From the NCBI GenBank assembly GCA_963924565.1, contig OZ004608.1, forward strand, positions 14,012,001 through 14,076,000: 64,000 nucleotides of DNA, given 5' to 3'. This DNA is from Ascidiella aspersa. Taxonomy: Eukaryota. Under the pieces are notes generated by a model. It had not been told where the DNA came from. It saw only the letters and a list, made by a program, of their open reading frames with translations, and ran no database searches. This document shows positions 3,576 through 34,600 of this stretch, in pieces. Both the position numbers and the translations under genes were made by a program. Numbering within the stretch: the first letter of the stretch is position 1; every line of letters begins with the position of its first letter.

Positions 3576-4075
3576 CCTTTTTCTCTTTTTTTTTACGCAA
3601 CTCAACTTTTTTTTTTCTTTTTTTTTATGTTGATATTTTTATTATTAGACAGCTACACAACAAAGCGAGTGCGAAAGAAAAAAAAAAGCTTGCAAAGAAA
3701 GTCGTTAATTTTATAATTCCGAATGGCGATAAGATGTTCCGATTTCTGAACCGATTTAACCATACTTAGGAACATATTGAAATTCGGCACGGATTCGGCG
3801 TACTTACAGCGGTAAATTACAAAACGCGCACACAACAACAAACAATTCAAAAGGGTTTCAGATTGATCTGCCACAATACCAAACAACATATGAACAGGGC
3901 TAGGCCGTAAATCAATCAGAAGTTTCGCCGAGATCAAGGCAGTTACTTCTTCCCAGAAAGTTACTACTTTGGTACAAAAATAAAACGTGATCTACAGTTT
4001 CTAATGCATCGCAGCAGAAAACACTTTATCTGAGTCTTTACTTCCAAATGAGCACAGGGCGTCATTGGTCATGAT
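3576..4075 (-). mobile_element. 5'-truncated L1/Tx1-clade non-LTR retrotransposon, 3' end (ORF2 C-terminal zinc-finger region plus A-rich tail)
   Basis: Frameshifted C..C...ETVDH..F.C.KV..FW motif at about 3950-4060. It is followed by ORF 3653-3937 (LFGI...LLNCLLLCARFVIYRCK...), typical of L1/Tx1 ORF2 C-termini, then an A-rich tail at about 3576-3630. Confidence 0.75.
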
Positions 4076-5501
4076 GGCCCTAAGGTTTAATTTTATCTAA
4101 AAAAACTTCTAAATTTGTTTTCCACGGTAACGTCGTAGTTAATTTGGTAAAGTTTGTCCCAAGGGATTCGGTTTGGTAAAACTTGTAAGTAGGCTGCGCA
4201 ACTCAACTTAGGTTTTACTTAATAAAGCCCCACGAATGTGCTGCCATCTAGCGACAAACATGTTTTACAAGAGGGATAATTGAACTTTCCGCCAGGTGCA
4301 TTTTTTCGCACCGTGCAAAAATGCTGTGGATACACAGGAAATAAGTTTAATAAGCTTGAAGTACCCGTGAACTTGTTATTTGTTGCCCCGCAATGTGTTT
4401 TGTAGTTTTATTTCGTGGCTTTAAAATAATAAATTCCGCTAGTGGTCAATCCTTGATAAATTTATTAACATTTTGCATAATTTTATCTAAAGGGGCGTTT
4501 AGGGAGTTCAGTAAATGTAAAAATATTATGCTGACATACCCACAGCGTTTTCAATCTTACAGTGAACATATTTTTTTATTAGAAGATCGCGTTTTTAAGA
4601 CCGGCGTACCTACTCGAAGAGCAAAATTAGGCCCATATATGGTATTGGATTGTAGTACTCCTGGTATTGGGATATTTTTTCCACTGGCGGTAAAATATTG
4701 CTAATGGGTGGCAAGTTGAAAGCCAGACCATGGTCAGTCTGAGTTGAACAGTACCATTTGAATACGCAAGCATGTTAAAATGGTTTATTCATGTTTCAGT
4801 TACACCCCACATCGTCCTCTCGTGGTACATTGGTTCCTGAGCACAGCTCTGTAAACACTTATCCTATAAGCCTATATAGACTGCGATCTTCTAAGCAAGG
4901 AGTTTATAACTTTTTTGGGTTGCGGCACAACAAAAAAATTAAAAAAATATTGGCGGCAGACTTTCTAAAAAACAACAATTTCCCAAATTGACCATCACCC
5001 TCAATATACGTGGCGGTAATACGTAGAGCATTAATATTATCTTATTTCTTGTGGATAGTGTGCAATCAAATCTTGCTTGCATACATGTTTTTTTGCAATA
5101 CTAAAATGTTTCAAAAAAATAAAACGTTACGCGGTATACTTAAGGATCTCTTGAGGCACGCTAGTGGGCCGCGGCGAACGAGTACATAGTTTAAGAATTA
5201 CTGTTCTAAACAAAAACTATATGGAAGTGCCAAAAGCATTATGGCTTCATGCAAACTTCAAACATTCTTGGACTTGCGTTACAAAAACTAAGCACAACTA
5301 AATCCTAGGAACAAAATAGTACCAATTACACAAACGCAATATCAAACATTTCTTTAAACAGTCGGATATCTACTTCTTTATATAACCACATATACAATGT
5401 TTTTACTTAAGGTGCAAAAAAGAGAGCAAAAATAAATAATAAAGTTTCACAACAAAATAACGTAGCAAGTACAAATGATGGGTTTTCGACAGGATGGATT
5501 T

Positions 5502-11500: not shown

Positions 11501-14500
11501 ATGTTCCCCTTCGTTATGAAGCTGCTTGTACTAACAGATTGAGCAAGCATTGGCGTATGGTTGTTTCTCGACTCGTTCCCTTGTGAGCCTGCATAGCTCA
11601 GTTGGTAGAGCGACGGTCCCGGCTTGACCGGAGGTCGTGAGTTCGAACCTCACTGCAGGCTAGTTGTTGTTCTAGTCTGCTCTGCTTGCATCATTGATCG
11701 ACAGATTCGGTGAGTCTGCAATGGCTTTTCGGTGTACTAATAATACGTAAGCCGTTATCGTTGGTCAAAAAGCAGCTTCAGAAGGGCTAGATCTCAGTTG
11801 TAAGCACACATATATGTGTGTACATATGTTTCATTGTATTATGATATGATACTGGCGATCCCCTTCGTTATGAAGCTGCTTGTACTAACAGATTGAGCAA
11901 GCATTGGCGTATGGTTGTTTCTCGACTCGTTCCCTTCTGAGCCTGCATAGCTCAGTTGGTAGAGCGACGGTCCCGGCTTGACCGGAGGTCGTGAGTTCGA
12001 ACCTCACTGCAGGCTAGTAGTTTTTCTAGTCTGCTCTGCTTGCATCATTGATCGACAGATTCGGTGAGTCTGCAATGGCTTTTCGGTGTACTAAATGTAA
12101 TGTTCTATCATTAACTGAGTTGAAATATTACCAACACAGAACATGGGCCGCGGTTAATTGGAATTACAAGTAGCACTAAACAATACTAACATATATTGGA
12201 ATTTTTCCTCGGGCCTTGTCCTCCTTAATCGCTTCGAGAAGGGTCTCTCCCCGAACTGCTCCTAATTCATCTGCCTCCAGAAAGCGCATGTGCACCAGAG
12301 AAACTTGACCTGAATTCGATACACTTTAGGTAGAAGTTGCATTGCAGTTTTTTAACTTTACAAAAGTTGTGCCCTTGAAGACCTACTTGCTCTTTCCACG
12401 GACGAGTGACTATAAGAAGAGGTATAGGCGACCAATCGGTTCACGATCTCGCAGGTTGATTGGTCAGGGTTTAAGGCCAGTTGCTTTCGCACCGTTCTAC
12501 TTCGAGCAGAAAGCAAAGACATGAGTGTTGCTTCGCTTGCAGTTGCTGTTTGGAAGAATTTCGGTGATAGCAGTTGTACGTGATATTGTAATATATGCAT
12601 ACAAACACAACCAACTAATTGACAACCTAATGAAAAATTACAACACGAAGCAGATAAGCCATACTAATTTCTTTTATTTTGGAAAGAGCTATCCATCAAA
12701 TTATTTCCTTCGTTAGTAATATGCTACACCAGTGGTTTTCAACCGCCGGTCCGCCAAATATATTACAATTTTATATCTCAATTGTAAAATGCAAGATGTT
12801 GAAGGCTTGTCCAACAAATTTAGAACTTCGCCAGTACCGTAAATTGTAGCATTGTGACATAACATAGAGTTATTGGTCGACCTTTAACTTTATCGTACGT
12901 CACAATGCTGTTGTGCGAAACTGTTTAAAAGTAGGCTTTAACTTTTTTAAGTCTTAAATGTTAAAACCAGTTGTATGTGTCAAACCACGTATAACACATA
13001 TGATATCAAAAATACAGCAGCAAATTTCTCATTTAATTGAAGTTTCCACTCTTTGCTTTTAAGTTGCATGCTTTTGTCGTAATTACATATTGGGTTGATT
13101 TGTTTTTTTTGAACGTCCACCGGTCCTCAAATTTTGTTTTGGAATTTTACCTGTCCGTAAGCTAAAAAGATTGATAACCACTGTGCTACACTATAAAGGT
13201 GACATATCATAGTAACGGTCGGAAAACCACAACATTGCAAAGTGTCTTTGCGTCTCCAAATTCTGACCTTGAATAACCCCGCCACCTTTTCCGTTTCCTT
13301 CATTCAAGTAGAACTGTGGAAGATCAATAGCTTTTGCAAGCCAATCCATCACCACCGTTTCTAACTCGGTACAAGAAGGCGACGATTCCTAAAAAGAAAT
13401 AAGAAATTTTTAGAGTTGAATAAAATTGCTGATAAATTCTACTGAGTTCCAAGATCACAATCTTTTGTGACTTTCAAGTCACATTTCTCGTCAATTTAAT
13501 TTAATAAAACAACAAGACAACCTTAGAAATTATACAAAAAAACATTTGTATCCTGTCCTAATTATTCAGGAAAATGTTCCGGTTTGGGCTTTTTTATATA
13601 ACTTTTTGTGTTTACTGCTGTTTTTTTGCACTTAATTTGCATTTTAAAGCAAGTGAATTTTTTTAAGGCAGGGATTGGAAACCTGCAGTTCTTGGACACA
13701 ATGTAGCCTGCTTGCATATTTAATGTGAGCCGCATATTTAATGTGTCAAAGTTTTCTAAAAGTTAAAACTTAATTAAAACTCTACAAACATTACAAACAA
13801 TAAATACTAGTTATGCTGTAGTAATCAACAAGTATCCCTTTTGGAATTTCTTCTTACCCAAGTAAACCCAATATCGGCGATCGCAGTTGACAACACGTCG
13901 CCCAACATCGCCGGGTAGCTGTTAGCCGCTGGGAAAAACCCAAACATGTTGGACGAGTGCCATTGAAGAACGTTTTTGGTGACGTCAACGATATCTTTGA
14001 ACACATCCTGCCACTTTTCTCGCCCTTCGGGGGCTTCCTGGGGAACTAGGTTGCGCATGAAACCTTAAGAAAACGTAAATGGTAATTGCGTTGACTTTCT
14101 AGGCATAATCGGAAAATGTTAAGGTTTAAAAACGCTTTAACCAACAAGGTTATTTCGTGTGGCTTAAGAACACGTTTTATTTTATTGTTAAAAATCGTGA
14201 CGTAAATGCACTTTACCACAATATAATAATATATTTTTCTAGTTAGTGCTATCGGGTTCTTTTTAAGTTTCCGGTTGAATCTGGCAGATATTATATCATT
14301 TTTAACCTTGGTATTTGTGTTTTGTATTATAGAAGTCTTTTTTGTGTTTTATTAGTTACATTCTAAATCAGTGGTCGGCAAACTTTGGGCCGTGGCCCAA
14401 ATGTGGGCTGCAGAGCAATTTTTGTGGGCCGCGAGTTTCTTTTGAATAGCTTATAGTGTTTTATGTAGTTGTGGGCCGCGCGATAGACGTATTCATTGCA

Positions 14501-15573
14501 CTTGTTGGTGTGGCGTAAAATTTTTAAATTGGCTTAGCTTGGAAAGAGCCACGTGTCAAATGTAGTCCTGGGAGCCTGTCGAACTACATTTGTTGCCAAC
14601 TTTAATTATATGTAAAAGCAATTTTTTTCGCGCCTTGCGTGTATTGTTTCCTTTTATAGTGTGTTACATTAATGCATGGTAGTATTTTCAGCATCAAGTC
14701 GCCAATATGTCACCTTAAAGTCAAATATGTATCCGGCACTGTTTTCGTATAATTTTTACTTAGTGGGGGTTCAATAACTCTGAAACGAGTACTTTGGGCC
14801 AAGACAAAGAACTTTGCCGGCCACTGTACTAACGCAACTGTGGCTTTAAGGTAAATTTTTGTTACTGTTTTATATGGTTGGCTCACGGAAGGACGAATAA
14901 GCGCCAGAGTTCATTAGTCATATCAAAAAGGTATGGAAAAAAATATATATTAAGGATCACCCATTATATATTCAAAAAATGGGGGGAATGTACCAAACCA
15001 TAAATTTTGCCCGTTTTATTAATGTAAATGCCAAATGTTTTCGAATATTTTCTGTCTATCTAAATGTTGACACGAATTAGGCAAAATTGTGATAATCTTG
15101 GGAAAAACTTAAAAAAAAAGAATTGGGAAAACTTTTTCAACATAAAGGCAGAAATAGGTTGAAGACCACTGGCTTTAACGCATGTGGTAGAGGGCACTAA
15201 CTACCATCAGTTTAACCGCTGGACTGCACCGGGACAAGTTTTTAATTTATTTGCACATTTAGAACTTATACGTTGATACTGGATAAGGCATCATTTTTAC
15301 AATTCGCTACTACTACTACGATAAGTTGTAGTTACAAATAAGTTCTGCATTTTTCTGAAACATTGTGGAGTTTGCACCGGGACCCACCGACTAAGTTACT
15401 TCCTCGCTGTGGCACTTACCAGGAGTTACATCAGGCATGGGTTGAACGTCTTTAATGTCTTCGTTGTTCTGAATGATATAGTCTACCAAAGCAACTGAGG
15501 CCTCTCGATATTCTTCAGTCGTCAGTCCTCTCCGTGGTGATGCTTCGAAGACGCTTTCTGCGGTTTTGTTCAT
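5502..15573 (-). CDS. DDC: Aromatic-L-amino-acid (DOPA) decarboxylase-like group II PLP enzyme, 11 exons, 496 aa
   Basis: Exons 15573-15420, 14063-13858, 13388-13268, 12545-12387, 12309-12191, 9632-9566, 8638-8544, 7196-7129, 6739-6649, 6181-5960 and 5690-5502. All are GT-AG and phase-consistent, totalling 1491 nt. Motifs: [56 protein letters not shown] (PLP lysine), [14 protein letters not shown]. Whether this is the DDC orthologue or a lineage-specific paralogue is uncertain. Confidence 0.92.
6973..7058 (+). mobile_element. Short fragment of the 354-bp tRNA-mimic repeat family
   Basis: Matches about 11757-11848 (tcgttggt..aaaagcagcttcagaagggctaga...). Flanked by the direct repeat gaaatatgaaa at 6962-6972 and 7051-7061. 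Confidence 0.75.
8015..8404 (+). mobile_element. Diverged, circularly permuted copy (more than one unit) of the tRNA-mimic repeat family
   Basis: Colinear with the 11505-12094 array but starts at a different point of the unit and runs across the unit junction. Degenerate cloverleaf at about 8198-8270. Confidence 0.8.
10268..11456. mobile_element. Composite non-autonomous hAT element (MITE) in a DDC intron
   Basis: TIR cagtggtgggattca...tgaatcccaccactg with a perfect 8-bp TSD gtcttata (10260-10267 and 11457-11464). There is a second internal left end at 11016. Confidence 0.9.
11505..12094 (+). mobile_element. Head-to-tail 1.7-unit array of a 354-bp tRNA-mimic repeat
   Basis: Near-identical units offset by 354 bp. 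Flanked by the direct repeat ctaaatgtaatgttc at 11492-11506 and 12091-12105. Confidence 0.9.
11587..11660 (+). other. tRNA-like cloverleaf inside the repeat unit (second copy at 11941-12014); not a canonical tRNA
   Basis: Acceptor stem gcctgca/tgcaggc, D stem gctc/gagc, stem cggtc/gaccg with loop ccggctt, T stem gtgag/ctcac with a ttcgaac loop. Pol III A box (tagctcagttgg) and B box (gagttcgaac) are present. U33 and purine 37 are missing. Confidence 0.8.
12730..13183. mobile_element. hAT MITE
   Basis: TIR cagtggttttcaa...ttgataaccactg with a perfect 8-bp TSD tgctacac. Confidence 0.9.
14369..14826. mobile_element. hAT (Charlie-like) MITE
   Basis: TIR cagtggtcggcaaa...tttgccggccactg, internal gggccgc subterminal motifs, degenerate TSD. 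Confidence 0.75.
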
Positions 15574-16292
15574 GGATAATTTCTATTAAAGGCGCTGAAA
15601 ACGGTACTAAAATACCCTAAGAAGGAATGGGAATGTCGTCAAAACGAAACGGTTACAATAGGATTAATCCGATAAAATGTTGTTAAAATATATGGCTTGC
15701 ATTTCTGTTGAGCGTTAGCCTATATACTTTAGGCCTTTAGAAGGTGTCGCACACATATTTTTTGTTATTCAGCTAATCTGAAAAACCAACCTGTTCTAAA
15801 ATGGCGGCAGTTTTGAATTCGTATGACAGTATGACACGTACACTGCTTACGGTTGCCCGTGACCATCAACATTTAAACATCGGTCGTCGTGTTCATCTAC
15901 ATTGTTTATTACAGTTGGTTCAATGTTAATGTCTAGTGACGTAAAGTTGGGCAACGCAATGGGGTAAGTTAGGAACATTACTTCCTAACGCTACAAAAAT
16001 TGTACAAACTAAGAAAGGGCTAAAGTAATAGGTAAAATGTCTGATTTCGATATAAGAAAATGGTATTAATTGGCACAGAAGGCGGCATATGCAGGGTTTC
16101 TGTAGTTTATGTAATTGACTCATTTGTCTGTCCCCTTAACAAAGAACAATGTAGCTTTATATTATGTTTCCCAATTGTTGGAAAGCTAAGGCGCCATCGA
16201 GCATATACAATACGGTAGCTTGCTACATACTATAGCATCGTTTACGTTCCGGGACCCGAATTACTAAGTTACATCCTCGTTGTAGCACTTAC

Positions 16293-16446
16293 CAGGAGTT
16301 ACATCAGGCATGGGTTGAACGTCTTTAACGTCTTCGTTGTTCTGAATGATATGGTCTGCCATAGCAATCGAGGCCTCTCGACATTCTTTAGTCTTCAATC
16401 CTCTACTTGGGGATTCTTCGAAGACGCTGTCTGTGGTTTTATTCAT
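16293..16446 (-). CDS. Duplicated (distal) alternative first coding exon of the DDC-like gene
   Basis: 154-nt copy of exon 15573-15420 with an intact ATG, an open frame and the same phase-1 donor (G|gtaagtgc). It also has the same upstream cattccttcttag acceptor. 12 of 51 aa differ. Confidence 0.8.
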
Positions 16447-18285
16447 CTTTGATTTCTAATAAAAGCGCTTAAAAAAGTACTCCGATAACCTAAGAAGGAA
16501 TGCTAAAGTCGTTAAAACAAAACACAATACTAAACTTCCGATAACGGTCACAATAGGATTGTCCCGACACAATTTTTTTTAATTTATGGCTTCTGCGCGA
16601 TTTCCTATGATGTGTCGCAAACAAATTAGTTTGACAAAGTTTTAAAACAATCAAATCACATTTATGATCTCCACAGACACTCCAAAGTTATCACGTTAAA
16701 TAAATTTGCAGAAATCCGGGATTTTTCCCAACACGATATGCCAGTTTTTGTTAAAAATATGGAAATCTTCTAATGTTTATACCAATAAATCGGAATCTAT
16801 TTAGATTTTTCATTTTAATTCCATGGTATTTTTCGACATTCAAGGGCTCGACGCAGTGCTCCTGTTTAGCGCATTTTTTAATAATGTTTTTTTACTGATT
16901 TCAAACGCCTGTCTTCTTACATGGCTTCCGTGATCAATCTTTTTTAATCTACATAAAATACGTTCAGTACCCACTTTTACTGTACCAATTTTTCCAAATT
17001 TTCTTACATTCCGGCCCGAACTAGTTTTTATTTCGAGTTATGTACAAACAAAACACAGTGCCCAAATTATTTTTGGGAGGGGTACGAGCATAAAAGGCTG
17101 GGTATCTTGAAAAATATATATAGCTTCATAGCGATACGGCTTTAACCTAGAAAACATCCGTGTCGTAAATCTTTTGTACCCGTTGGCGCAATTTAAGTAG
17201 GTCATGGTGGCACAAGGCCGCACAGCCCCACTTTATAATGTGGTACAGAAGTCGACTCTGGTACAAAAGTATTCGCAAGCTACATTTATTAAATTAAATA
17301 TTAGATTTAATGGCATGACAAGAACACAAACCGTATTTGTATTTTTTTTTATAAAAGGAAATGACGTAAATGAGCCGAACGATATTAAGTTAGGAAACCA
17401 TGATTTAATTTTGTTTATTGTGATCTGTTACGACCATAAATGCAAACTTGTTTAGTTAAACTTTAGGCGAAATCGTACATAAAACAACCGATCAGAGCTT
17501 TAAAATAACGATACCTATCTCAACAAAACCTCATCACATAAACGCTGCAGCTATAACTTTGTACGAATACACCGCACCATTTACATCCGCACATTCATCC
17601 GTACGACGTTTGTCATCCGAATTACATTTTTTTCATCCGCACAAGTTGCGCCCACGGTTTGAAAACACCGATCTACATTGTTTATTACAGTTTTTTCAAT
17701 GTGAACAGTCCTATTTCAGAACAAACGTAAATCGCCTGGCGCTTGTTACCGGGTATTACTCAGCGAGATAAACACATTGAATTACATGTGTTTAACTTTA
17801 AAGTGTGAATAACCATGTAACAGGCAACATAATAAAAAATGCCGTTTGATATTTTAGCTTATTTGAAAAATAATTGTTTTTCAATAAATTTTTATGTTCA
17901 TGTTAGTTGCATAAAAAAACATAAAAAACTTTCATTCCCCAGAACATAAAAAACTTTCATTTACGCAGCTAAAATCCAGGTTGGGGGCTACAATGCAACG
18001 CGTTGATAGGCATTAAGTATCAATAATTAACGAATAATAGCACAACCAGAACTATTAACGTGACGCTTCCACATCTTTGTTATTTCAAATAGTTTTACGT
18101 CGTGATGGTTTACTTTCGATGAAATAAAGGGTAAAAAAACGTGTTCTAGGACAGGCTGACAACATTCGTGTTTACGCCATAAGAATGTTACACCGTAATT
18201 CGTGCTTTTTGCTGTATTTTGATCTGTGGTGTAAAATTTTTCAATATAATCGATAGACTAAAATTTATCTATGTTGAACTGCGAA

Positions 18286-18525: not shown

Positions 18526-20677
18526 TGACAATAAAAGTGCATAACAAGTAAGTTAAACAGTCAATGTTTGGTGATAAAAACAGTAGTGATAAAAAAATAG
18601 CAACTTTAATAGGAAATATAATGTTGCCTATACTGATTATTACGATGGCGATCAACCATGCAATTACGGAAATATATTCATAATAGTAGAAATCTCATAC
18701 CATTCTAGATACCCAAGCCTTTCTCTGGCCCACAATTGCTTCCTAAAGGCGGATTAGGTTCTGAAGGATATTTTGTGAAAAACACGGCGCAAAAAATTGG
18801 AAAGTTTAGTGGTTTGAGTTCGTAAAATAAAATTTGACTAGATTTGTTATTTTTAACTTATATAATTTAACCCCATTGAAATTGTTGAACTTATTACACA
18901 CTATACATAAAAGTAACCTGTATTTTAAATCTGTAGTTTGTGAGATTTGTTTTTCCATTTTACTCAATCGATTTTTCATTGATGTGGATCAAATGGACGA
19001 ACCGGTTGACTGGCATGTTTCTGTTAGTTATTTTACCCAGGTGTTGTCCACAACATCTAATGCTCCGACTTTTATGCTAGACCCGCCTTTAACCAATTGT
19101 TCCCACTTTATTAGGTGATTAAACACGATGTTCTTAACCTCTCAAGTCATCCAGAATCTGCACATCTACTACTAAAACCCGTGCTTAGAGTTCATAAGTG
19201 TGAAAAGCAAGCTTGAAATGTTTTTTATAATATTTCGAGTCGCTCTATGATGTTGATGTAGACTTATAAGATATTATTAGTTTGCGGCTTTAAGGCTATG
19301 TACGTGTTGCGGTCTTGCAACATCTTTAGCCGTTAGTAATTACTTAAGGAATACTAAATTAACACACTCAGTAACCCAGTGGGTTTTAAACATTCGTGCA
19401 TTTCATAGGCGCCGGTTACCACGCAATTTACCTCGCGAATCTGTGTATGACTATAGCATGTGATATCACTTTTTATTGTGTAGATAATGTTGGATCAATT
19501 AGGATAGTATTCAGATATAGGAATTGGTATAGTGTATTTGTCGCCTAGTATTGTTGCCGTTTTGAAGATATATTCTATGATAAGGGAAAATGTTATGTAA
19601 AAGTCTTTGATTATAGTTGTTTATTGTTTGGTCGATAATGTATGTAAGTTACTGTAATGCTTAAGCTCGTTTTTGTTGCCAATAATTAATAATGGTATTT
19701 ACGTTTCTTGGTATTTTTGAGTATCAGGCAGATAGTCTTACTGCGGCAGAAAATTAGCGCTAAGATACAAATAATCAGAACTCACGCTAAATTTTTATTT
19801 ACGATATATGAGATCGTAAAATTGGTCCCCGAGTAACTTGACGTTTTTGTTCTGCTAAAGTAATATCTGCAATCACACATTATTATATTATGTCTATTCT
19901 TGTTAATTAAATTTGACAATAATGCAGTCCGCAAAGAAAGTTTTAACGCACTTAACGGATAAAAAATAAAAACGATAACGATTTAACTCAGTTAGCACAT
20001 GAGAGGTTAGCTGCTTTGACCGTTTTAAACCAGGCTAATTATGCAGTTTGAAGTTTGGATTGCACGCCATAAAGTATAATAGGGTTGCCAGCTGATATAA
20101 TGAAATATGATCTATTGCCGGAAAGCAGTCTGTCAATGCATGGGACGCACCATGAAGCGGCCCACGTATTAACACTTTTGCGCTCTGCTTACACATGTAA
20201 AAGCTAACATTGACGCGACGCCTTTTCGCTGGAAAAACGACACGCATGTTATTTTTCCACTCCGTTTGCGCGAAAATAAAATAGCACCTGAAAGGGAAGG
20301 TCCTTTTCGCATTGTAGGCTACGTTAACGCGCACCAATTTAACTGTCGATTTGTCGCAAAATGAATTGCGCACGATTCCGCGTAATGAGGCTTATTCTAT
20401 AACCTTAAACCATAATATCACTACTGCACTACTGAATGATAAAGCATTTTAACGAAAAGTAGAATTCAACGAAATTCAATTGCTCGTTAAATTGAACGAA
20501 GTTTAAAATGCAGATTTCCGCTTGTAAATGTAAGCATTTTTCTGTGAAACAATGCATAATTATTTTGTAAATAAATAACGTATCAGACCGTGTGGTTGTG
20601 CAGTTTTATGTTTGACAATGATAGCAGTAATGCTACTTATCGTATGATTAATGTGATAATTAAGTTATATATGAATT

Positions 20678-21012
20678 GAAGTGATCGGAACACTTTTGCA
20701 AAAAATTCCGGAGGTGACGGCCACCTTTGCAAAAAACGGAAGTGATCGGAACACTTTTGCAAAAAATTCCGGAGGTGACGGCCACCTTTGCAAAAAACGG
20801 AAGTGATCGGAACACTTTTGCAAAAAATTCCGGAAGTGATCGGAACACTTTTGCAAAAAAATCCGGAGGTGACGGCCACCTTTGCAAAAAACGGAAGTGA
20901 TCGGAACACTTTTGCAAAAAATTCCGGAGGTGACGGTCACCTTTGCAAAAAACGGAAGTGTGAGGGGCACTTTTGCAACACTCCCTTGAGGTTTGAAAAA
21001 CACCTTTGCAAA
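20678..21012. repeat. Array of alternating 33-bp (A) and 28-bp (B) hairpin units inside the LTR element
   Basis: A = ggaagtgatcggaacacttttgcaaaaaattcc; B = ggaggtgacggccacctttgcaaaaaac. Order is ABABAABAB plus two degenerate units. Confidence 0.95.
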
Positions 21013-22322
21013 ATTTTTTAAAAAATCAATTTTTGTCTGATTTTTTTATCGCCTGAAATCGTAACTGCAATTATTCCATAATCAATATGCGCAGCTGGAG
21101 ATTAGTATGAACGTCTTGTGGTTTCAGAAGGTTTGGCACATGCACGGGAAAGCAGGCTAATATGCGAATGAGTTGTTAGCACGAAATGGATCGGTAACAC
21201 TAGCTATTATGGTACGTAGAATGCGATAAATGCTTCACGCTTCAGGCTGGGCCACTCTGTAAATACCGCTCACTAGCATCGTTTCATTGTTTCCCTCCAA
21301 TGATCTTGGATAGCAGCGCAGAAGACTCGTAATTGGAGTAGGGATTGGTTGCAGGTTGTTTTCCTAATCATTTTACAGCTAGGCCTGATCCCCTGGATAA
21401 CTGTGAACTAAGATTAGCGATAAAATCCTGTCATTGAGGAAGTGCGCACACTCATGTAACCATTTCCGAAGATATTCACGACGACACTAAAGTCTTGTCA
21501 GTGTTGTCCAACGTCAATTGTTTTCCGTGTTCTTCGACTTGTGGACATGCCATTCAACGTTATTCAGATGGTCAGTCACGCGCATGCAGCACGCGTCCAT
21601 GTGACACCGCGTGTCCTCCTTGCAAGACTCGGGCGGGAGCCCCTGCTTCATTAAAACTTTCAATTTCAAGAAGGAAAACTTCAAGCCTGGCGTCATTGCT
21701 TTCCTACCTGGACATCTTGGGGAAATTGGATCAAGTTTTCAGCTCCTGGCATAGAAATGCAAAGTCGTTCTTTGCAGTTGCAACCGGCCAAATGACTGGA
21801 TACGTATACAGGAAACCAATAACTGCCCTTAAATTTTCGCAAACATATCGCTATTTGAACCTCGCTTTTCTCACTTTTCTCACTTTTCGTCTAATTAATT
21901 AATTGTTACTATACAACAACGGGGTGATTTTAACGCTCCTCTCCTTGATTTATTTTTGTTAGCTTATCCACAAGAATGGTTTCCCAATAACACCATAATA
22001 ACGAACCGTAAAGCTTCCTTTCCTGTTCGTTAGCTACGGACCGCGCATGTATAAAAAGGTCGCGCCCTTTCATGTCGTTTAGCAACTGGTTCTCCTAGGG
22101 TCGCCATAGCACATAAAATAACCCTTGCCCTATTTGGCAATGTAATTAATATTTCAGTAGCTCTCGTATGTTTCAAACCGACTAACTTTCGGATAAAGCG
22201 TTTTCTTTTATGTCTTTGATTGCTTGTTTGTTTTCCGACGATTCACTATGAAATGCACAAATTTAAAACTGAACTAAATTCTAGGCTAATTATACCCTCC
22301 AAAAAACAAATAGACCAAATTC

Positions 22323-23278
22323 ACGGCTACTGAACTGCAGGATCAAAGCATCGCTTTTTCCTTGCAACAAACAAGTTTTACAGTTAAAGATTTACATGCT
22401 GGGACAGAAGCACTCGCCCGCGACTTGCGAAACTTTGAACAAATGCAACGTTCCGAAGACTGTCAACTATTCCGCCTAACACAACAAAACCGTCTTCTTG
22501 GGCTACAGAACCAACGTAAGCAACTTGAGACGTCTCACATTTCTCTCGCCACTTCAACCGCTGAACGGGATTTGCTCCGAGCCTGCCTTCGTTCACTACA
22601 CACCCTTGGAAACCTCACCCGGTATAACACTTCGATTTATTCCTTCACCTCATCGTAAGGCATTCTAAGATTTTCTCGCCTTGCAAGAATTGAGTCTATG
22701 GAAGCCTCCAACACTTCCGATACGAACTTCACTGGAATCAGCGCGATCCTCCACCGGCAAAACACAAACATCTCTAAGAAACTTGAAGACATCGCGAGTT
22801 TCGACAACACAAGCATAAATCTAACGTTCAGCAACTTTCGTCCTTTGGTTTTCACTGAGGATAGCCACCTATTCAACTTCTCGCATGGCGCTTTCTTTGC
22901 TAATGCTGGTGCAGGACCCAACTCAATCGAAGGCGTCCGTGACATAGGATTTTAGGCCAACCCCTTTCAATGGTGGCAATCATCGGAAGTTTGGCGCTAG
23001 CAGCATTTTTACTTCTCATCGGCGGATGCTACGCATGGAATCGTTTTCGTCACAGTAAAGACAATGGCAAACACCGACAAGGAATCGCGTTTTCAACTCT
23101 CTTAAAAAGGGCGATGGCATGTTGCGGTCTTGCAACATCTTTAGCCGTTAGTAATTACTTAAGGAATATTAAATTAACACACTCAGTAACCCAGTGGGTT
23201 TTAAACATTCGTGCATTTCATAGGCGCCGGTTACCACGCAATTTACCTCGCGAATCTGTGTATGACTATAGCATGTGA
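22323..23278 (+). pseudogene. Degenerate envelope-like type I membrane glycoprotein, C-terminal part
   Basis: ORFs 22362-22658 and 22698-22955 are in the same frame, separated by a single TAA. A frameshift near 22950 leads into ORF 22970-23278 with the TM helix MVAIIGSLALAAFLLLIGGCYAW followed by a basic tail. Many N-x-S/T sequons; canonical env position just before the PPT. Confidence 0.65.
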
Positions 23279-24500
23279 TATCACTTTTTATTGTGTAGAT
23301 AATGTTGGATCAATTAGGATAGTATTCAGATATAGGAATTGGTATAGTGTATTTGTCGCTATGTATTGTTGCCGTTTTGAAGATATATTCTATGATAAGG
23401 GAAAATGTTATGTAAAAGTCTTTGATTATAGTTGTTTATTGTTTGGTCGATAATGTATGTAAGTTACTGTAATGCTTAAGCTCGTTTTTGTTGTCAATAA
23501 TTAATAATGGTATTTACGTTTCTTGGTATTTTTGAGTATCAGGCAGATAGTCTTACTGCGGCAGAACATTAGCGCTAAGATACAAATAATCAGAACTCAC
23601 GCTAAATTTTTATTTACGATATATGAGATCGTAAAATTGGTCCCCGAATATCGTAAAAGTACGGTAAAGACAAATCACAAAATGTACAGAATTCGTTACA
23701 CAGGAAATTATACCAAGACTGTTATTCTCACAAGTGCAGGTTATAAATATAGCGTTTGATCCCATGTATCCCAATGAAAAACAACTCTGTGCAACGCTTA
23801 TAATCGTGCCGGAAGTTGTCTGTCTCATAGTGTTCAAGTTCAGTAGCGGATGACGTTTGTATTTAATTGCATGTTTACAAATTTGTGCATTAAGTTCGTG
23901 ACAAGTTTGTCCATTTTTGCAAAATAATGCTGGTGTTAAGAACAATCTTCTTCGAGTTTTCCATTTGTGCACGAACGTTTAATCGCCTAACTGAAATGCT
24001 AATCTAGTTGTCCAAATCTGCCAACAAATACTTTTAACTGAAACGTTTACTCGATCTAAAGACACAAGCTACCACCAGACTGTAGGTAGACGCTGATTAA
24101 CATAATTACATCGCCCAACCAGTATTTAAGAAAACCACTAATCAAACAAAAAAGCGCCTTTTGTCCTTTCTGTGCAATAATTCTGAAAAATTATTAAAAA
24201 CACCATAGGCCTACCTATAGAATTCAGATTTTTCTGCATTAAACATAACACTAAAATCACATTGGTTTTGTGAAAAAAATCACATTGGTTTTGAGAAAGT
24301 TATCTTTCAATCGTATGAAACACGCACTGAGTCGCACTCGTCTTAGTCTTATTTACGTCTTTAGACAGTCTAAATTCGCAACGGTAATAAACGTGCGCTA
24401 CAACCCGACTATAGGCCTCTTTATGGCACCTTTTAGTCGTCTAAAATTCGTTTTCGTCTTGGTCATATCTGCGTCTATGGGAAATCGTAAAGGTAATACA

Positions 24501-24729
24501 ACTAGTACTGCAGTAAGGTTCGAACTTACGACCTCCGGTCAAGCCGGGGCCGTCGTTCTACCAACTGAGCTATGCAGGATCAGAGAGGGACACGCGAGAA
24601 ACAACCATGCGCCAATGCTCGCTCAATCTGTTAGTACCGGTACAAGCAATACAATTGAAGGGGATCCACAGTACCATATCATTTATTCGATGAAACATGC
24701 ACACATAAGCGTTCTGATAACGGAGATCT
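24501..24729 (-). mobile_element. Circularly permuted partial copy of the tRNA-mimic repeat family
   Basis: Reverse complement of about 11787-12020, spanning the unit junction and the cloverleaf. Flanked by aggtaataca (24491-24500) and aggtaatgca (24730-24739). Confidence 0.85.
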
Positions 24730-25553
24730 AGGTAATGCACACTTATTAAAATCGTTTAAAAACACATTTCAAATATACTCTCGTTTTGGGTGTTTAAGGC
24801 GTCTTCTTGTCATTTTTATTCGTCTAAACTCGTAAAACACCTAAAAAACATCATTTAAATCGAGTACAAAAACGTTTTTATGGCGTCTTTTGAACGTCCA
24901 AAACTGGTTTTCGTCTTGGTCTAGTTTTCGTCTATGAAAAATCGTAACGGTATTTCACGACCATAAAAATCGTTTGAAATACGTGTCAGATATGATCTCT
25001 TTTGGGGGGTTAGGACGTCTCAGGTATTTTTTAATTCGGCTAAAACGCATTGATTATTTCGTCTTTTAAGTTACACATTTTCGCAACACTTTGGTTATCA
25101 ACACTAGAATTACCGCGTTGTTGACAAACCTAAAACTACCACGAGCGGTCAAAATAACTGTTAGTTCAATAAGAAAAATGCAAAATAATTGCGTTTTCTT
25201 TTCATTAGGAGTTTCTTTTAACTATTGAGACGTTTCAGCGTTTATCTAGTTTAAGTTTAGCAAAACATTGTATTTCAAATGGGCCTTTATACCGTCGGTG
25301 TTGTTCCTACTAACAAAAACAGTAAACGTAATTGTGCTTCCATAACGCTATCCGTCTTACCGCACACGGATTAGTTTTAAAGTAGAAATCACTACCGCTC
25401 CTGATATCATGCAATATTGCGCTTTTAGTTTACAGACCCCAAACTAGTTTAGCGGATTATTAGAATTACAACACTATATAACACATATATTTTCAAGTTT
25501 TCGGAAACTATGAAACCATAGGAGGAAACAAATTACGAAAGGATGTTTTAACG

Positions 25554-25624: not shown

Positions 25625-28600
25625 TCAAGAGTTTAAGCGACGCAGAAAGTCTTTGATCTGAAATTTAAAGGCATTGATAAGCAAACCTAAATAAACTGGT
25701 TTACTATTAAATAACGTAACACAACTTTACGCACGCATGTAATATTGTCTGGTATTTAACGAACGGTAAACAACACAGATCAATAACTTTTTGGACACAA
25801 AGTGTTAGGGTCTTTTATGATATTTCTGGGCCCACGAGCCCGAAAATGCGTTCATTGTTTTTTGATTAGTTTGTTTTTAAAAGCTCTACTTTTCAAAATA
25901 TTCGTCAATAAAAATATGTTTAATTTTCCACGAGTGTGGTGTCTAGCAACGTGGAGGTTAAATCAGACTTAATGCAATATTTTTTTATCTTAGATTTTGC
26001 TAATACCACATCAATGTGCAGATTCAAACCTTACTTTGAGCTGGGAGATCAAGTTAATTTCGGGCTTCGCGCAAGTTTGTAAATGTTCCACAGAAACTAT
26101 TTGTTTCTGGACTTAAAGCTAAATAGATAGCAATCACTTAAACAACTTTCCTCTCAGATATACGCCATGTCGCATTTTGAGGGTAACTTTTTGGTCAATA
26201 AACAATAAATGACTGTTTGTTTGTTGCATTAAGGCTTTTTTATTTCTTTGAATGTACCTGGGCGTACTCACGCTATGCCTATGTGATGTACGAGGCGACG
26301 TTTATGTATTCGTAGGCGAAAAATGCGAAAAAAATAATTTTGCGATATCTCAGAAACTAGAGCAAATTCAAACAACCCAAGTCCATTTTCGGAATCAGGG
26401 GCCCTAAAGTATCATTAGAAAATTGTTGACCCGGTAATTAAGCCACGTGTTACTTAAGCCCAAACGAACAAAGCTCACCATTGCGTATCCCAGCAAAGGT
26501 CGCTGGTTTGAATGCAAATAACCAAGTTGGTGCTCGATCTCAGATGCGAAGTCGGTGGCGAAGCTGGTTGCGTTGCGACGCTCGCCCGGCGAAATTAGCA
26601 TGCAGCCTGGGAAGTAATGGACACAAGATCATTTGATTTAGTGTTAAGATTTTCTTTCAGTGTTCAGTTCACTCAAAGCAGTGGTTCTCAAAGTATCACC
26701 TGCGACCTAAACATGGGTCGCGCAGTGTCTGCCAAGATGATTCAAATCTGTTGACACCATCTTTTTTTATTCAATGTTGTGAGCTTTTTTAATTCCACCG
26801 GAATTGAATTAGTGCATTTTACGTATTTCATTTAGCTTCATCTCAATAAAACATGTTTTTTGTTTACCGTGCCGTAACAGGTTCCGAGAGTTAGCCAAGT
26901 AGCTTGTAAGACTTTAGGTTAATATTAGTTGATAACGGGAGTGTCTTTGGAGTTGAATAGTTCAGCAAGTAGGTAGTGGAGTATCAAGACACTGAAACAT
27001 TGATACACAGGGGCGTACAACTGCGATCTGGCCCTTCAGAAGTCGTACTGACCAACGATAACGCCACACATATCATAGTACACGAAATACCTTCAAAGGG
27101 CTAACTAAAATCAGTTAATCAATTCAGGAATATTTGATGAATTGTGTAAGCAAGGCCCGACTACAAAAACAACTAGCCTGAGGTGATTTTGAACTTACGA
27201 CATCCGGCCATACAGGGATTTTTTCACTGTTGTCAGTTTCACAACTTTTTTTAACAACAAAAAATATGACCTAATTGACCGTTACTTGCCCCACGACTAA
27301 TGAGACAAAAAGGCCATTGGATAGGCCGTGATCTTGTTGATCACTCATGGTAAATCCAAGGGATGAAATTACACGTGAAAAAGCAGGAATCCATTCTAAC
27401 TGACACAACAAGTTTTAAATATAAACACGACGTTAAACTCTTGTTAGTATTTTTAGATTGGCGAAACACCACATTTTAAAACAAAAACGTATACATAGGT
27501 CAAGTATGAATCGTACTGCAACTGCGACGCCAACACAATTTCGGCGTTACTTACCAAGTGCGAGGGCTTGCAGATCGAGCGCCTTGAAGTGTTGAGCCAC
27601 ACCGGAGATGTCGATTCTCAGCAAAACGGGACACTTCATAAGGAAGCGGTACGAAGTCAGGGCCGCATCGCGCTGAAACGTAGAAAGTACATACCACAAT
27701 CAAGTGTTCGTATTGCAAAAATATGTTTCTTAGTGGCCTAATATTGTCGCCATATTAATGCCCCATATAAGTCGACCAACAAACTGAAAGAGAGTAGGGC
27801 GAGAGCAGTAACCCCTCTAAGATGCGCAAATGCGCAAATTGTAGACCGGGACATTTGTGCGGCAAAACTGCTTTTTTCGCACTTTTGCAATAAATTTCTT
27901 ATTAGGATTAGGCAATAAACAAAGACAATTGTTAAAAAACTATAAAAGCACAAAAGTACGTAGAAGCTATATGAATTAAATGCGTATTTGTTCGTAATTC
28001 GGTAAAATTGTACACAAATTTTACCAGTTTACAACATTTCTAACTTATTTGTCCCTGTGGTAACTCAACGTTATTCATGCTCAACAAAACATACATTTGC
28101 AGCATACAAAGTTTCGCGAAAGAGACACTGGCAAAAAGTCTTTTTGTAGCTGACAACAAAAAACAACTGCTTACGTTTGTCTACTTTTCGATTCGATAAG
28201 TTGTAAGGAGGCTGGTACTTTTACAATATCGATAAGTTATAAGGAGGCTGGTACAATTACAATATCGATAAGTTGTAAAGAGGCTGGTACTTTTACAATA
28301 TCGATAAGTTATAAGGAGGCTGGTACAATTACAATATCGATAAGTTATAAGGAGGCTGGTACAATTACAATATCGATAAGTTGTAAAGAGGCTGGTACTT
28401 TTACAATATCGATAAGTTATAAGGAGGCTGGTACAATTACAATATCGATAAGTTGTAAGGAGGCTGGTACTTTTACAATATCGATAAGTTATAAGGAGGC
28501 TGGTACAATTACAAAGCTTGAATACTTTGTACTTAACTGGGACAAACCTGTCGAGTGTCGAGTGGTGGTGTTAGCGCCACTAGCGGCAGTGTGACGCACG

Positions 28601-31600
28601 ATTGCCAGACCGAGGCGAGGCAAGACAAGGAGCGGACAGCCGGGATGAGACAGATCGAAGGTAAAAGTTGTTGCAGGTAGGTCACCTGTGATGGAATGCA
28701 AGTGGGAAGATTACAGGTTACGTAAAAAGTAACAAAAAAGACACGGAAAAGACTTGGAAATATGTGTTTTAGATGGTAACTTTGGTAGGGTCTTAAAAAT
28801 GTGCACCAAATGTTGCGTAACTAACTGGTTTTTGTCGACAACAGTATCTGATAAAGAACGTATAATATATAATCCATACCAGAATCTAGCATGAATATTC
28901 AAAAAAAAAAAAAGTATCGCTAAAAAGGATTACCAGCAGAAAATATTTTTTCAAAATGTTAAAAAAATATCAATAAATATACTGTTGCAGCCAGGCATTG
29001 TATCAACTGTAAAAATTTTCGTTCGGCAATATATTTTAATAAATGTACCGACGTTGCGACAACCCGTTATTATATTATTATACAAAGATTTTTACAGAAA
29101 CATCAGCGATGCAACTGTACCGCATTTTTTTACTGGGGTTCTCTAGAAAAAAAAATCCGTGCCAGTTTTACTAAATGTACCGACGTACCGACGTACATCT
29201 AATAAATTTCATATTCTATAAAATATTTTGCCCAAACTGCAGCGACAGCAACTTTCCCCGAGGCTCTCCGTAACAAAAAATCAGTGACAGTTACGCGCAC
29301 GTCGAAAGAAACAGAAGTCCGACCTGCTGCAGCGAGACGAGATGTTGCAGCAGAACGGCCCAAGTCTCAGGTGCCACTGGGCCGAACTCGCGACAGAGGT
29401 CGGCCGCCGCCCTGAGGGCCAAGGGATTGTGTCGGTGGGCCGGGGAGGCCACGATGCTGCGGGCCACCGACGACTTGTCGCTGCGTCTGAGGTGAGCCGA
29501 CGGGATCTTGAAATGGGCGGCCTCCAGCTGGGTCAGGTAGACCAGGATTCGAAGCTCGGACCTGTAGTTGGAAAGTTTCCCTTTTTTAATAAAAGACGCG
29601 TTTTTATAACGGGCGTATAAACCTTGGAAAAAACTATGGGCCGCAAGGAGCCTTTTCTCTTTTGTTCTTTAATTACCAATTGTTAAATGGCATTGGAGCA
29701 TAATGGTTGTGGTTGTACTTAGACGTAGTAAGAATATGAAAGCCCATAGCGAAGTAGGCATCATTTTGAACGTTTCGAGCATATCATTGTTCACTTGCAC
29801 CATTGTGAGAAAAAACTGATTATGAGTATATATTAATGGCATTTTTTCGTATACAAAATCTGGGCCCATCTAAAAATGTTTTTCAACAGGTGTTTCAACT
29901 CAGTGAACAAATAGTTGTTTGTACATTTATAAATACACCTTTAAATATTTTGGCTTTTAGTCCTGTACAGCTTCGAAAAAAAGTTTAAAATTCGCACAAG
30001 AGAAAGTAACCTGACAATTGGCAGATTTTATAAACAACCACTTTTTGGATTTTTAAATTTAAACGAATTATAATGGCATATATTACCAATAATCTAGTCT
30101 ATTTACTTGTTATCTGATGTTATATTTTTTTCAACTCAACGTCGTCTATGAGGGTGTCTTTCAGCAGCATTGGTAATAATATTAAGTTTTTTTGGTAATG
30201 TTGAGTGAATCACCCTTTGAATAACAAAACATTTCGTTTTGGATCGGATCGGTTGCCAGTATTCACTGCGACGAATCCTTACCGGAGCTGGTCGCCGGTC
30301 TTGTCAGTGAGCGATTGCACGATACTGTCGTTGGCGATGTGCAGCAGACAGTTGATGGCACGAACACGACAGGCGTTGGTGAACTTGCGGTTCTTGTGGT
30401 CGCCAATTAAGCGCACCAGGTAACTGCAAAATAACAAAGTTAGCAACGCTCACCTTTCTGTCCGGCAAGCTAAATTTTGGGGTTTTAGAATCTTAACTAC
30501 ATTTTTGGTATTGACGGACATGCGAAAAGTTTCTTTACCGACTTTCAAATGTCCCGGGACCGGTTTTTCGTCAAGATAAGAGTTTAGATGGGAGGGTTAC
30601 TTAAAATGTAGAGCAGTTAATTACACACGAGGAAGCTTGGAATTGAAGTTGGATAATTAATCTTTAGGTTTATTAGGGAGACAATGTAATAGTTTTCAGA
30701 ACTTGTAAAAACATTTTATGATTCCATTTGATAAACATTAACATTAGCAAACAAGTGATTTAACATAAACAGGTGATTTGTTTACTTTATTGAAAATGGA
30801 AGTATATTAATAAGATTAACCAAGAGTTGGAATGACAATTGTGATTTCTTTCTTTATGCAATTAGCTGGTCTAACCAAAGTTAGTATATGTTTTCTTGCT
30901 AATCGATTAGGACTTAAATTGTCCCACTTACGTGGCTTGCTTCAGTGGATTGGTGTGAGTGAGAAGGTAAATCAGGTGAATAAGTTCCTTTTCGTCTTCG
31001 GAACGTTCCGAGGGTTCCTGGATCAAAGCCGCAGTTCGTATCCTCTCCAAATTTGTTGTCTTAAAACAAAGTTTTAATTGGAAAGCAAGAATAAAAAATA
31101 AATAACTCCAAGAAACAACAAACACAGATAGCAGGTGGTGGTTATTTTTTGTATCTGTTTTACACGGGCACTAAGCTGAGTAATAACTAGCGAAAAATAT
31201 GTTTGAAATATGAAATTAGGAATATTGTTCTGCTGGCGGCATTTACGTCTTATTAGAACCACTAATTGCCCCACCAACCAGACTTGCAGAACAGATATAA
31301 TTCTAGTTTAACGCAACTAATCCTAATTCTATTCTAGTTTGTGGTTTGCTTGTGCGCTAATTTAGTGCTAATCTATTTCGGCTTTTACCAAAAATGCTAC
31401 TTTCTCCAACAGCATTTTTTTAATTTTTTTTGTTGAAACTACTTGTTGAGTAAGTTTTACAGCATAGAAGCCAAAACCCACAGAAATATTTGGAATTTAC
31501 ATTCTGATTAGAATATACTGCGATTTAAACTAAACTGATTGTGAGTAATTAAATGTAATTCTAGTTCAAAATGTAGTATTACTTTTTTTTTTTTCAAGAA

Positions 31601-34600
31601 TTCACTAATTCTTATACTAATCTATAGATTTTAATTCTTTTGTAATTTTGAAAAGCAAAAATAAATCAAGTTGTGCAAGTCTGCCACCAACCGTGTCATC
31701 GTCTGCAGCCGAGGTGTCTGGTTTGTCAGCAGCCAGCAGAAGTTGCCAGATCATGGTCAGTCGGAGCTTGGTGACGTCATGACCGTGTACCTCGCCCAGG
31801 TGCTCAACAACCGCGTGTATATCTGCGAGAAACATAGTGGTCACTGTAGGTTATCTAGGAAGCATCAGGGGGCGTGTTTCGAACTGTCTTGATTTTATGC
31901 GAATAGTAGCCTTGGACGAATTCAAGAATTTAAAGTGCGGATTAAAACAGAGAATCTATTACAGGATTTATGTTGACAATTCCATCCAGGCTGTACAACA
32001 CTTGAACTTCAAAGTAAAGTTTGTCGATTTTCTAACGGGGCGTTATCATCCTGACAACTCCTTAAATGTTGAACTTCGAAGTAAAGTATGAAAATTATAG
32101 CTTTTGAAATATCTAAAATTGGTTCGCTCAACGCTTTTTTAATATAATTCGAAACAAATCAGTATATATAATTATACATGCCATGGTCACCGCCATAAAA
32201 AATAGTAATAGTTTTTTTTCAATGCACTTACTGAACACCTAACTTAAAGCTGCACATAACATAAATCCAAAGACTTTTAAATATACAAATAGGTTCAAAG
32301 AGTTTTAAAGACTCAAAGACTTTGTGGCAACCCTGTACATTGTACAACGTTTATTACAGTTTACAATTGCCTTGAATGCTTCAAAAAATTCGCTCGTAAA
32401 AATGTAAAAAGGGGACAAACGCCCGATGTTTAACATGCGGAGAATAGCAAAGCGCCAAAGTTCCATCAAAAAACAGCACCAGGCCGACAACGGCGTTTGA
32501 AAGGTGCCTCCGTCTCAACAAAATGCTCCCCGAATCGGTTAAACGGCTCCACGCACCTGGGTACTTGTCGCCGGGCTCGAAGAACCTCCTTACTATGGAG
32601 GGATGCTTATAGAGCTGCACCACTAGATTGGTGGGCTGGTTCATCAGTTTCAGCAGGTCAGGGCTGTCCAGGGCGTGTCGGGCCAGCAGGGCCTCGGTGT
32701 CGGCCTGTTTGTAGCTCCACACCAGGGTCTGGTGAGCGTTGCTAATGGCCTGCCGTTCGTCCGAATCGTCAGTGATCGTTTCACGCCACTTGTCCACCAG
32801 CGAAATGCACCTGTACGTGTACAGTAAAAAAAAAGACAGTCGTTTATTGTTGCAACTGACTAAAGCCTAAGAGTTTGCCCGACATTAGCTATTTCTAACT
32901 ACCCCGAAATTCATCAATACTGTTAAGATTAACAGTGAGCTTGCTTAACCGCATTTTTATGTAAGTACTTTATGACCTATTTAATTGTGTGATCCTTCTA
33001 TGACTTGCGGTCAAAGGTCACTGAGCACATGGTGCCTTGACATTGTAGTTGTCCTTACGGCAGTTGGTGTTACTACCTTGTCGCGGTAGGAGCTCATTTT
33101 ATTAGTTACTTGTAAGTGTTTGGCAATGATGTTTAACTTACTGATTCTGTTTCAGTTTTATTAACGTTGTTCTGTATTGATTCTATTGGAATAAGGAATC
33201 CACTTGTTTAAGCCTTTGCGTGTTTTAGTAAATTCCTGTACGTGTACACTGATAAAGACTTCAGTATCGGATCGGATCCATTAGTTTTCAAATACCACAC
33301 CATTTAACTGCACTGAACTGGACAATACGTAGGCAATTTTGCGATTAGATAGATGTCACAATTGTCACATAGTCAAGGTTTGGCTAAATAAAATACCAAT
33401 CCTTTAAAAAAATGTGCCAAAAATAAACGATTTTCAAACAGCAAATGCATACGAAAAACATTAATCGATGTTAGCTTGAAACTACTGTAAATAACTTGGG
33501 CCTAACTCCGGCCTAACTGGCCAAGCTACAATACTGGGGTATATATTTTGTTTCAAACAAGGTATTGCTAGTATTTTTATTCGCTCCAAAAGACATAAAA
33601 TAAATGTGTCACTTACCACTGGTAAGCGGCCACCTTGTCTTCGCCAGGCGATAGCACCTCGGAAATGCGCTTGGCCATTGCGACGGCCATCGTGCAAGAA
33701 GTCATCTTTTCCGTGAGGGCTTGAACTTGGGCGAACACGTCGGTGGCAAGTGCTGCGTTGCCGTCAATCTTCGATGCTTGCTGCAACAGCGATAAGACAT
33801 TTAAGTTGCTTATTTCATTGAAATATTTTTAAGAAACTGGGAACCAGAAAGCATTTTAATAAATGGAACTTAAATATAGATCGCAGTAAACTTTAAACCG
33901 TTTTTTTTTTATGTTTTTTTGGTCCCGTTTGTATACATACAGTATCTGTACACACAGCCCGGACAAAGGCGACTGGGTAGTGGATAGGTACAATTTTTAA
34001 ATTGGCTATGAGAGCTCTATTCCAATATTTAACTTTTTTAATGATTTTATTGATTTCATGTTGCGTTTGTTGTAAATTTTGCTTTCATACTGTCCTGTGC
34101 TTTAGTAACTGAAGAAAAACTGTTCATAATTTTGCGATTTGCGAATGTTTGGGCTACTATGTGGTAGAAAAAAGGTTAAGAACCACTGTTCTAAAGTATA
34201 CAAGTTTATACAGATGTTAACTATTGATGTCCCACAATATCGGATACGAGGTTATAAGGCTAAGTGATAGTATCGGTTCACATTCGATACAAGTGTGACA
34301 TTTCAGCAATTTTCTTCATTTCAGTCATGTCTTGCGATCCAACGCACAATTTTTTACCTTGAAAGGTTAATCTCTCAGAAACTGACATTAAACTTTGAGG
34401 GTCTAAGCTTTCTAAAGCCAAATCAAACGTTTGCTTACTAAGCTGGACAATGGACATTGGACAGCCATGCTTTTGCACGTTTTAGTTTTATCCATTTTGT
34501 AATTAAACAATACTAAAGGGGTCGTTTTTAAATCGGACGGCCCACTTTTAGCCCTGTAAGTAACAGAAGAAAAGAATCGTACATTCCCAGTGTAATCAAT

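Follow-up and report, generated by a model that had tools for sequence, protein, structure and literature searches.

Structure of the LTR element

The window, that is, the whole 64,000-nt stretch of Ascidiella aspersa contig OZ004608.1 analyzed here, contains an internally deleted LTR retroelement with a broken env gene. The element lies at positions 19305 to 23658, with an interior of 3.3 kb, and both paired LTRs and a probable target-site duplication, the hallmarks of an LTR retroelement, are present. Outside env, its parts are as follows.

19300..19304 (+): probable 5-bp target-site duplication, left copy; the same 5-mer recurs at 23659-23663
19305..19821 (+): 5' LTR, a direct repeat of 23120-23636; right boundary inferred
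19822..19832 (+): primer binding site (PBS)-like word beginning TGG, recognized in the sequence
20173..20364 (+): possible scrap of a GPF-type integrase C terminus, seen only by eye
20617..21039 (no strand assigned): tandem repeat with a 61-nt period, within the element (repeat family D2)
21040..21823 (no strand assigned): internal segment, multicopy like env; read depth 7-11x that of the flank (bins 21010-21759)
23104..23119 (+): polypurine tract (PPT)-like segment, 13/16 purines, directly 5' of the 3' LTR
23120..23658 (+): 3' LTR (23120-23636) with a 22-nt extension made up of a PBS-like word and a second LTR-end copy
23659..23663 (+): probable target-site duplication, right copy, directly after the second copy of the LTR end

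The LTRs share a direct-repeat block of 528 nt (19305-19832 versus 23120-23647) with 6 differences, which consist of three single changes and one 3-nt block. The copies differ by ~0.8-1.1%, and the insertion is therefore presumably young. The 5' LTR starts with TG, its terminal inverted repeat is imperfect, and AAAA stands at its end instead of CA. Because the 5-mer at 23659-23663 comes right after the repeated last bases of the LTR, the LTR end was set at 19821 and 23636. By eye, and with a 2-nt gap, the PBS-like word is similar to the tRNA-Trp PBS of one ascidian element in the supplement of PMC13524379.

The right end of the element is unusual in that a PBS-like word and then the last bases of the LTR again (23637-23658) precede the target duplication. 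This arrangement suggests an aberrant reverse-transcription end.

No gag or pol was recognizable in the element interior (Pfam, three forward frames of 19833-21832), and the GPF-like scrap has neither Pfam nor PDB support. No pol was recovered, and the element may belong to Ty3/gypsy or to BEL/Pao. The internal segment at 21040-21823 has no Pfam match in its three forward frames and no match to the first 274 residues of P0003, the protein closest to the env gene, and it may represent a further open reading frame (ORF) or an unrelated surface-subunit region. A 154-codon Cys-containing frame is found at 21438-21902 and has no database match.

The env remnant

The env remnant extends from 21824 to 23116 and maps to residues 275-757 of P0003, an intact, natural, and unnamed protein of 757 aa.

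21824..22189 (+): C-terminal part of the surface subunit (P0003 residues 275-428); tblastn identity of 48% over 21824-22318
22190..22201 (+): furin-type basic site R-I-K-R; K and R invariant in 7/7 aligned proteins
22202..22250 (+): predicted fusion peptide, broken by frame changes; aligns to P0003 433-446
22251..22955 (+): long N-terminal helix, hairpin, second helix, and glycosylated extended segment; 63% identity to P0003 473-685, secondary structure from the P0003 model
22949..23116 (+): transmembrane (TM) helix (~22964-23038) and short basic tail; 64% identity to P0003 702-757

With stops read as X, the env piece is 63% identical to P0003 (E 2.6e-66), which was the sole homolog among 1,402 candidates, and such a match to a natural 757-aa protein indicates that the piece is more than a chance reading frame. 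Residues 1-274 of P0003 are not detectable in the window, and the remnant itself gave chance matches only against Pfam and PDB sequences.

The original prediction was that an LTR element has, at its 3' end, a decayed gene for an env-like membrane glycoprotein, and the LTR pair, the env homology, and the multicopy lineage bear this out. The peptides that it quoted are present in the sequence, as are the TM helix, the basic tail, many N-glycosylation sequons (8 N-x-S/T in 22314-22952), an in-frame stop (22656-22658), and a frameshift (a frame change near 22945-22955). The extent that it gave, 22323-23278, is homologous to env in part, but the gene really starts 500 nt upstream, at 21824, and ends at 23116, and 23120-23278 is read-through into the 3' LTR. 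The basic cleavage site at 22190-22201 and the frameshifted hydrophobic peptide had been missed.

The surface-subunit remnant (21824-22189) carries four in-frame stops and a ~35-codon deletion, and the segment at 22251-22955 has a frame change near 22315 in addition to the stop noted above. Just before the TM helix, the membrane-proximal helix is short of ~16 codons. In total, when set against P0003, the window copy has lost ~35 and ~16 codons in two deletions, and its reading frame is interrupted by five stops and changes at least three times. LTRs that are nearly identical on either side of so damaged an interior suggest copying in trans from a defective template. The proposed potential infectivity applies at most to the lineage, the window copy having a broken env and no recognizable gag or pol.

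A family of unnamed proteins

Six distant relatives of P0003 (P0004 to P0009; 24-33% identity, E 1.7e-7 to 6.7e-5) were found with HMMER among 1.84 billion representative proteins. None of the seven proteins is named, and none has a Pfam fusogen match. A profile built from the six relatives alone scores P0003 at 151.8 bits, versus ≤3.9 in 300 shuffles. The window piece reaches only 9.6 bits on the same profile, versus a shuffle maximum of 6.3, and is therefore connected to the distant members by way of P0003.

Overall identity across the seven is ~22%. Columns without variation comprise two Cys, one Pro, and one Asp, all a short way upstream of the basic site, and the K-R of the site itself, which is at the same column in all seven (six R-x-K-R and one K-x-K-R). 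A G-x-Y-(Y/W)...C-x-C motif is found near the N terminus of the five complete members. The 12-mer after the site is the most hydrophobic non-TM 12-mer of the protein in four of the seven and is within the top 1-4% in the other three; in P0003 it is the region of residues 433-446 that ranks first. In the six members with a whole C terminus, the ectodomain between site and TM helix is 274-313 aa long, with 0-2 Cys and 2-6 Pro, and all six have an amphipathic helix and a TM anchor. No Cys after the site is conserved across the seven aligned proteins.

Word-index searches with P0003 and with the family alignment returned only P0003, and a search for genomic loci found none for P0003, P0004, P0005, P0009, or P0019. 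For P0027, three viral-contig stretches were confirmed, and an exact DNA search for its locus found none. A Pfam match of P0003 to Baculo_PEP_C (27 bits, cut-off 38) was read as a generic coiled coil. A bacterial metagenome-assembled genome (MAG) locus, L003, showed a 36-residue coiled-coil match only, which was taken as chance.

Predicted fold

In all seven sequences, a hydrophobic peptide comes immediately after a basic site, as in class I fusogens, cleavage itself being only predicted. AlphaFold2 monomer models were made for P0003 (12 sequences) and P0009 (16 sequences), which are 24% identical to each other. Both models are of low confidence (mean pLDDT 36 and 41), and the surface subunit is unfolded in them. 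They nevertheless have an order in common: a peptide helix, a helix of 123-124 aa, a break, a second helix, an extended glycosylated coil, an amphipathic helix, and the TM helix. A class I protein is expected to have a long helix at its N-terminal end, a second helix, and a TM helix toward its C terminus, and the models predict all three. The helices of 123-124 residues are the best-predicted part of both (pLDDT ~50-75), and the break in the P0003 model is a beta hairpin at 579-594.

The sequences after the peptide have a periodicity peak at 3.40-3.56 in five of the seven, and helical power beats shuffles (15/500 or fewer) in only four of the seven. A simpler heptad score was not significant, being equaled by 16/100 shuffles. 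Helical amphipathicity before the TM helix is found in all six members with a whole C terminus (0-5 of 500 shuffles).

The named look-alikes in the ESM Atlas were all class I fusogens, namely, spike (0.93), haemagglutinin (0.92), and a group of F, baculovirus F, and gypsy env (0.86-0.88), with a low recognition value (1542), with both searches counting as one source and with scores below 0.9 being leads only. The best PDB-profile row was haemagglutinin, in a weak alignment (E 0.29) that spans its cleavage site. No profile or fold match to any fusogen was significant. Fold searches with the low-confidence models gave a TM-score of ≤0.24 over the query or a Z of ≤7.8 with generic coiled coils. 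Among these matches, gp41 (Z 7.0, rmsd 5.2, 154 residues aligned) and the coronavirus fusion core (Z 7.2, rmsd 2.7, 83 aligned) tie with unrelated helical proteins. No gB was among the matches, which carries no weight against it.

On this evidence, we consider that there is a good chance that the env family, which is unnamed, works as a class I-type fusogen.

Comparison with the catalogued envelope types

In a survey of 1,512 intact invertebrate Ty3/gypsy elements that carry env, every envelope was sorted into an F-type or an HSV/gB-type (PMC13524379). The 15 tunicate rows in supplement 1 of that survey comprise nine from ascidians, all gB-type (ENV_HSV), and six from appendicularians, all F-type (ENV_F). 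Like the elements catalogued there, the window element has a 3' env-like type I glycoprotein, multiple copies, near-identical LTRs, and a PBS-like word starting with TGG. Unlike the two catalogued envelope types, the family has a long surface subunit before the site; none of the Cys after the site is conserved, and profile searches gave neither a gB nor an F match. Its env is thus likely to be of a type that the catalogue of such elements does not include.

The original prediction read the gene as a gB-like class III fusion protein, and a strongly diverged gB-type env would agree with what is catalogued for ascidian errantiviruses. All nine ascidian rows of the PMC13524379 supplement point that way, and for the same reason a gB env in a tunicate would already be known. 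The resemblance to gB that was seen by eye stands for the last ~70 residues before the TM helix, where a glycosylated extended strand is followed by a Gly/Val-rich amphipathic helix that ends at a Pro, and fails for the rest. An amphipathic membrane-proximal region is a trait of gB but is not specific to it. Cleaved gB also has a distance from basic site to TM helix similar to that of the family.

Other features argue against gB. Conserved cysteine bridges, some of them beyond the cleavage loop, are characteristic of gB. The predicted core helix with one Cys has a Gln at that position in intact P0003, and no Cys after the site is conserved in the family. The hydrophobic peptide lies directly after the basic site in all seven proteins, whereas gB has internal fusion loops in domain I and no fusion peptide at its cut end. 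In the models (pLDDT 36-41), an uninterrupted helix of ~123 aa with at most one short hairpin is predicted where gB, in its five-domain layout, has a beta-rich crown. No gB family appeared in the best 25 of 31 Pfam families (E up to 10), in 50 PDB rows, or in the Atlas matches listed. We thus regard a gB-type env as very improbable.

A second alternative is that the family is a highly derived member of a described env type, either F-type or that of Oikopleura Tor3a. The Atlas features of residues 360-757 are nearest to F, baculovirus F, and gypsy env, at the scores given above, all of them low enough to be leads only. The F-type, however, retains a set of cysteines between fusion peptide and TM helix, and the bulk of the protein follows its cleavage site, while here 430-660 aa precede the site and 0-2 Cys follow it. 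Furthermore, none of the seven peptides has the F-x-G start. No family member has a Pfam F match, and the fold models are too weak for a comparison with F. The Env proteins of Oikopleura Tor3b and Tor4b have F-x-G and seven cysteines, both absent from the present family, and Tor3a Env, described as being without those motifs (Henriet et al., PMC4402516), may be an earlier description of the family. The Tor elements are also similar in being LTR elements of marine animals with a furin-cleaved, glycosylated Env (the site being only predicted here) and target duplications of 4-5 bp (PMC4402516). Against this reading, the six appendicularian rows in the PMC13524379 supplement are all typed ENV_F. 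A derived F-type or Tor3a-type Env is, on balance, unlikely. Rotifers are reported to have an F-type env and small gp41-like ORFs (PMC5408684).

The preferred class I reading agrees with the layout. Like retroviral SU/TM Env, influenza HA1/HA2, and coronavirus S1/S2, the family has a signal peptide, a large N-terminal subunit, a basic site, an N-terminal hydrophobic peptide, a long predicted helix, a predicted fold-back helix, and a TM helix, a similarity that is not significant in searches. Unlike those fusogens, its fusion subunit has neither a cysteine loop nor an intersubunit Cys, and it adds a ~40-aa amphipathic membrane-proximal helix. Influenza haemagglutinin has conserved fusion-subunit cysteines, including an intersubunit link, and orthoretrovirus Env has a cysteine loop in its TM-subunit ectodomain; the family has neither. 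The ectodomains of HA2 and gp41 are shorter than the 274-313 aa of the family. No account of this env family was found in the literature, the figures and supplements of which might contain one.

An intact relative without LTRs

An intact member of the family, of 990 codons, is found in another animal-like genome (L001:9986-12976). At its N terminus it is extended by a region that includes a hydrophobic segment. Its ORF begins, without an ATG, at a GC step from 0.30 to 0.49, where a word starting with TGG and a T-rich tract are located. No LTR pair is present, and no gag or pol match was found on the same strand in 10 kb upstream and 7.8 kb downstream. A second sequence, L002, is an exact repeat of the upstream part of L001, and the protein cluster of the L001 member has eight members that are almost identical. 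No family member was seen beside gag-pol, L001 (as repeated in L002) being the only relative context examined. Because L001 lacks LTRs, gag, and pol, the link between the family and LTR elements rests on the species of the window alone. The L001 member may represent a domesticated gene, a fragment of a virus, or a recent insertion that is truncated, and it is a candidate orphan or domesticated fusogen.

The L001 sequence also contains pieces of a Penelope-like RT and GIY-YIG at 15171-16457 and 3833-4411 (RVT_1 E 2e-4; the rest by eye) and, by eye, a scrap of a Polinton-type integrase at 13974-14336.

The lack of a retroelement context in L001 would also agree with a third alternative, in which the ORF encodes no fusogen and was captured as cargo, for example, a host or viral coiled-coil membrane glycoprotein (adhesin, fiber, or tether), and the fold searches, which return only generic coiled coils, are in line with it. 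However, the basic site is invariant and the hydrophobic peptide is retained despite overall identity of ~22%, the ORF is intronless, and in the window it occupies the env position, just before the PPT and 3' LTR. The L001 copy, moreover, begins at its sharp GC step like an inserted foreign segment. Captured cargo is therefore a reading to which we give little credence.

Copy number, transcription, and neighboring sequences

Read depth was determined over positions 21010-25500 with ~1% of the reads of one whole-genome run at 85% likeness (4 of 16 listed runs). The four flank bins had a depth of 4.0-4.7, against 19-48 for the nine env bins and 209-340 for the three LTR bins; these ratios correspond to ~4-11 env copies and ~47-76 LTRs. 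In one RNA run, env had a depth of 0.75-11, with reads partly in both directions; this is weak evidence that some env copy is transcribed.

Elsewhere in the window, exons of Rough deal/KNTC1 are found on the reverse strand at 29291-32866 (Pfam Rod_C, E 4e-13 and 5e-6) and mark the host as an animal. A duplicated exon-like segment (15390-15650 and 16263-16523, reverse strand; 85% identical) resembles by eye the N terminus of aromatic amino-acid decarboxylase, which is not confirmed. A very high-copy short repeat at 24460-24760, with a peak bin of >1,000x flank depth and inverted copies near 11505-12094, is probably a tRNA-derived SINE. A tandem repeat with a 36-nt period is located at 28121-28586.

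Proposed mechanism and significance

Class I behavior involves SU/TM cleavage and a trimer of hairpins (PMC13709493). By analogy, a furin-type protease would act at R/K-x-K-R on the predicted precursor, which has a signal peptide and a surface subunit of 415-640 aa. The hydrophobic N terminus thus released would insert into the target membrane atop a trimeric coiled coil of ~120 residues, and the second helix, the extended leash, and the amphipathic membrane-proximal helix would then fold back, bringing the TM anchor to the fusion peptide. The protein would be used on retroelement particles, and the particles of intact elements would spread from cell to cell, as has been suggested for gypsy and Tor elements. 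No such fusion machinery can be encoded by the window copy, and the defective element would have been copied in trans. Cleavage, trimer formation, hairpin refolding, fusion, use on particles, and in-trans copying are all steps that we infer from such analogy.

A more specific scheme, which we regard as possible but doubtful, is that the family forms a class I lineage of its own among marine-invertebrate retroelements, with distant kinship to haemagglutinin or spike rather than to F or gB, and that it combines a cysteine-free spring-loaded core with an amphipathic membrane-proximal helix like that of gB. The member in L001, if no other, would then be an orphan kept by its animal host, possibly in a syncytin-like role.

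If the gene were gB-type, F-type, or Tor3a-type after all, it would be an ordinary decayed member of a described group. The remnant belongs to an unnamed envelope family that is probably of class I type, its fold being unproven. A family with a class I layout in which the surface subunit comes first, and with neither an F nor a gB signature, would represent a further independent envelope capture. Such an envelope would be closer in layout to retroviral Env or haemagglutinin and would bear on the origin of class I fusogens of the SU/TM type. Seven natural sequences are now at hand for the study of structure and fusion, and the orphan intact member in L001 is a candidate for a domesticated fusogen of invertebrates.
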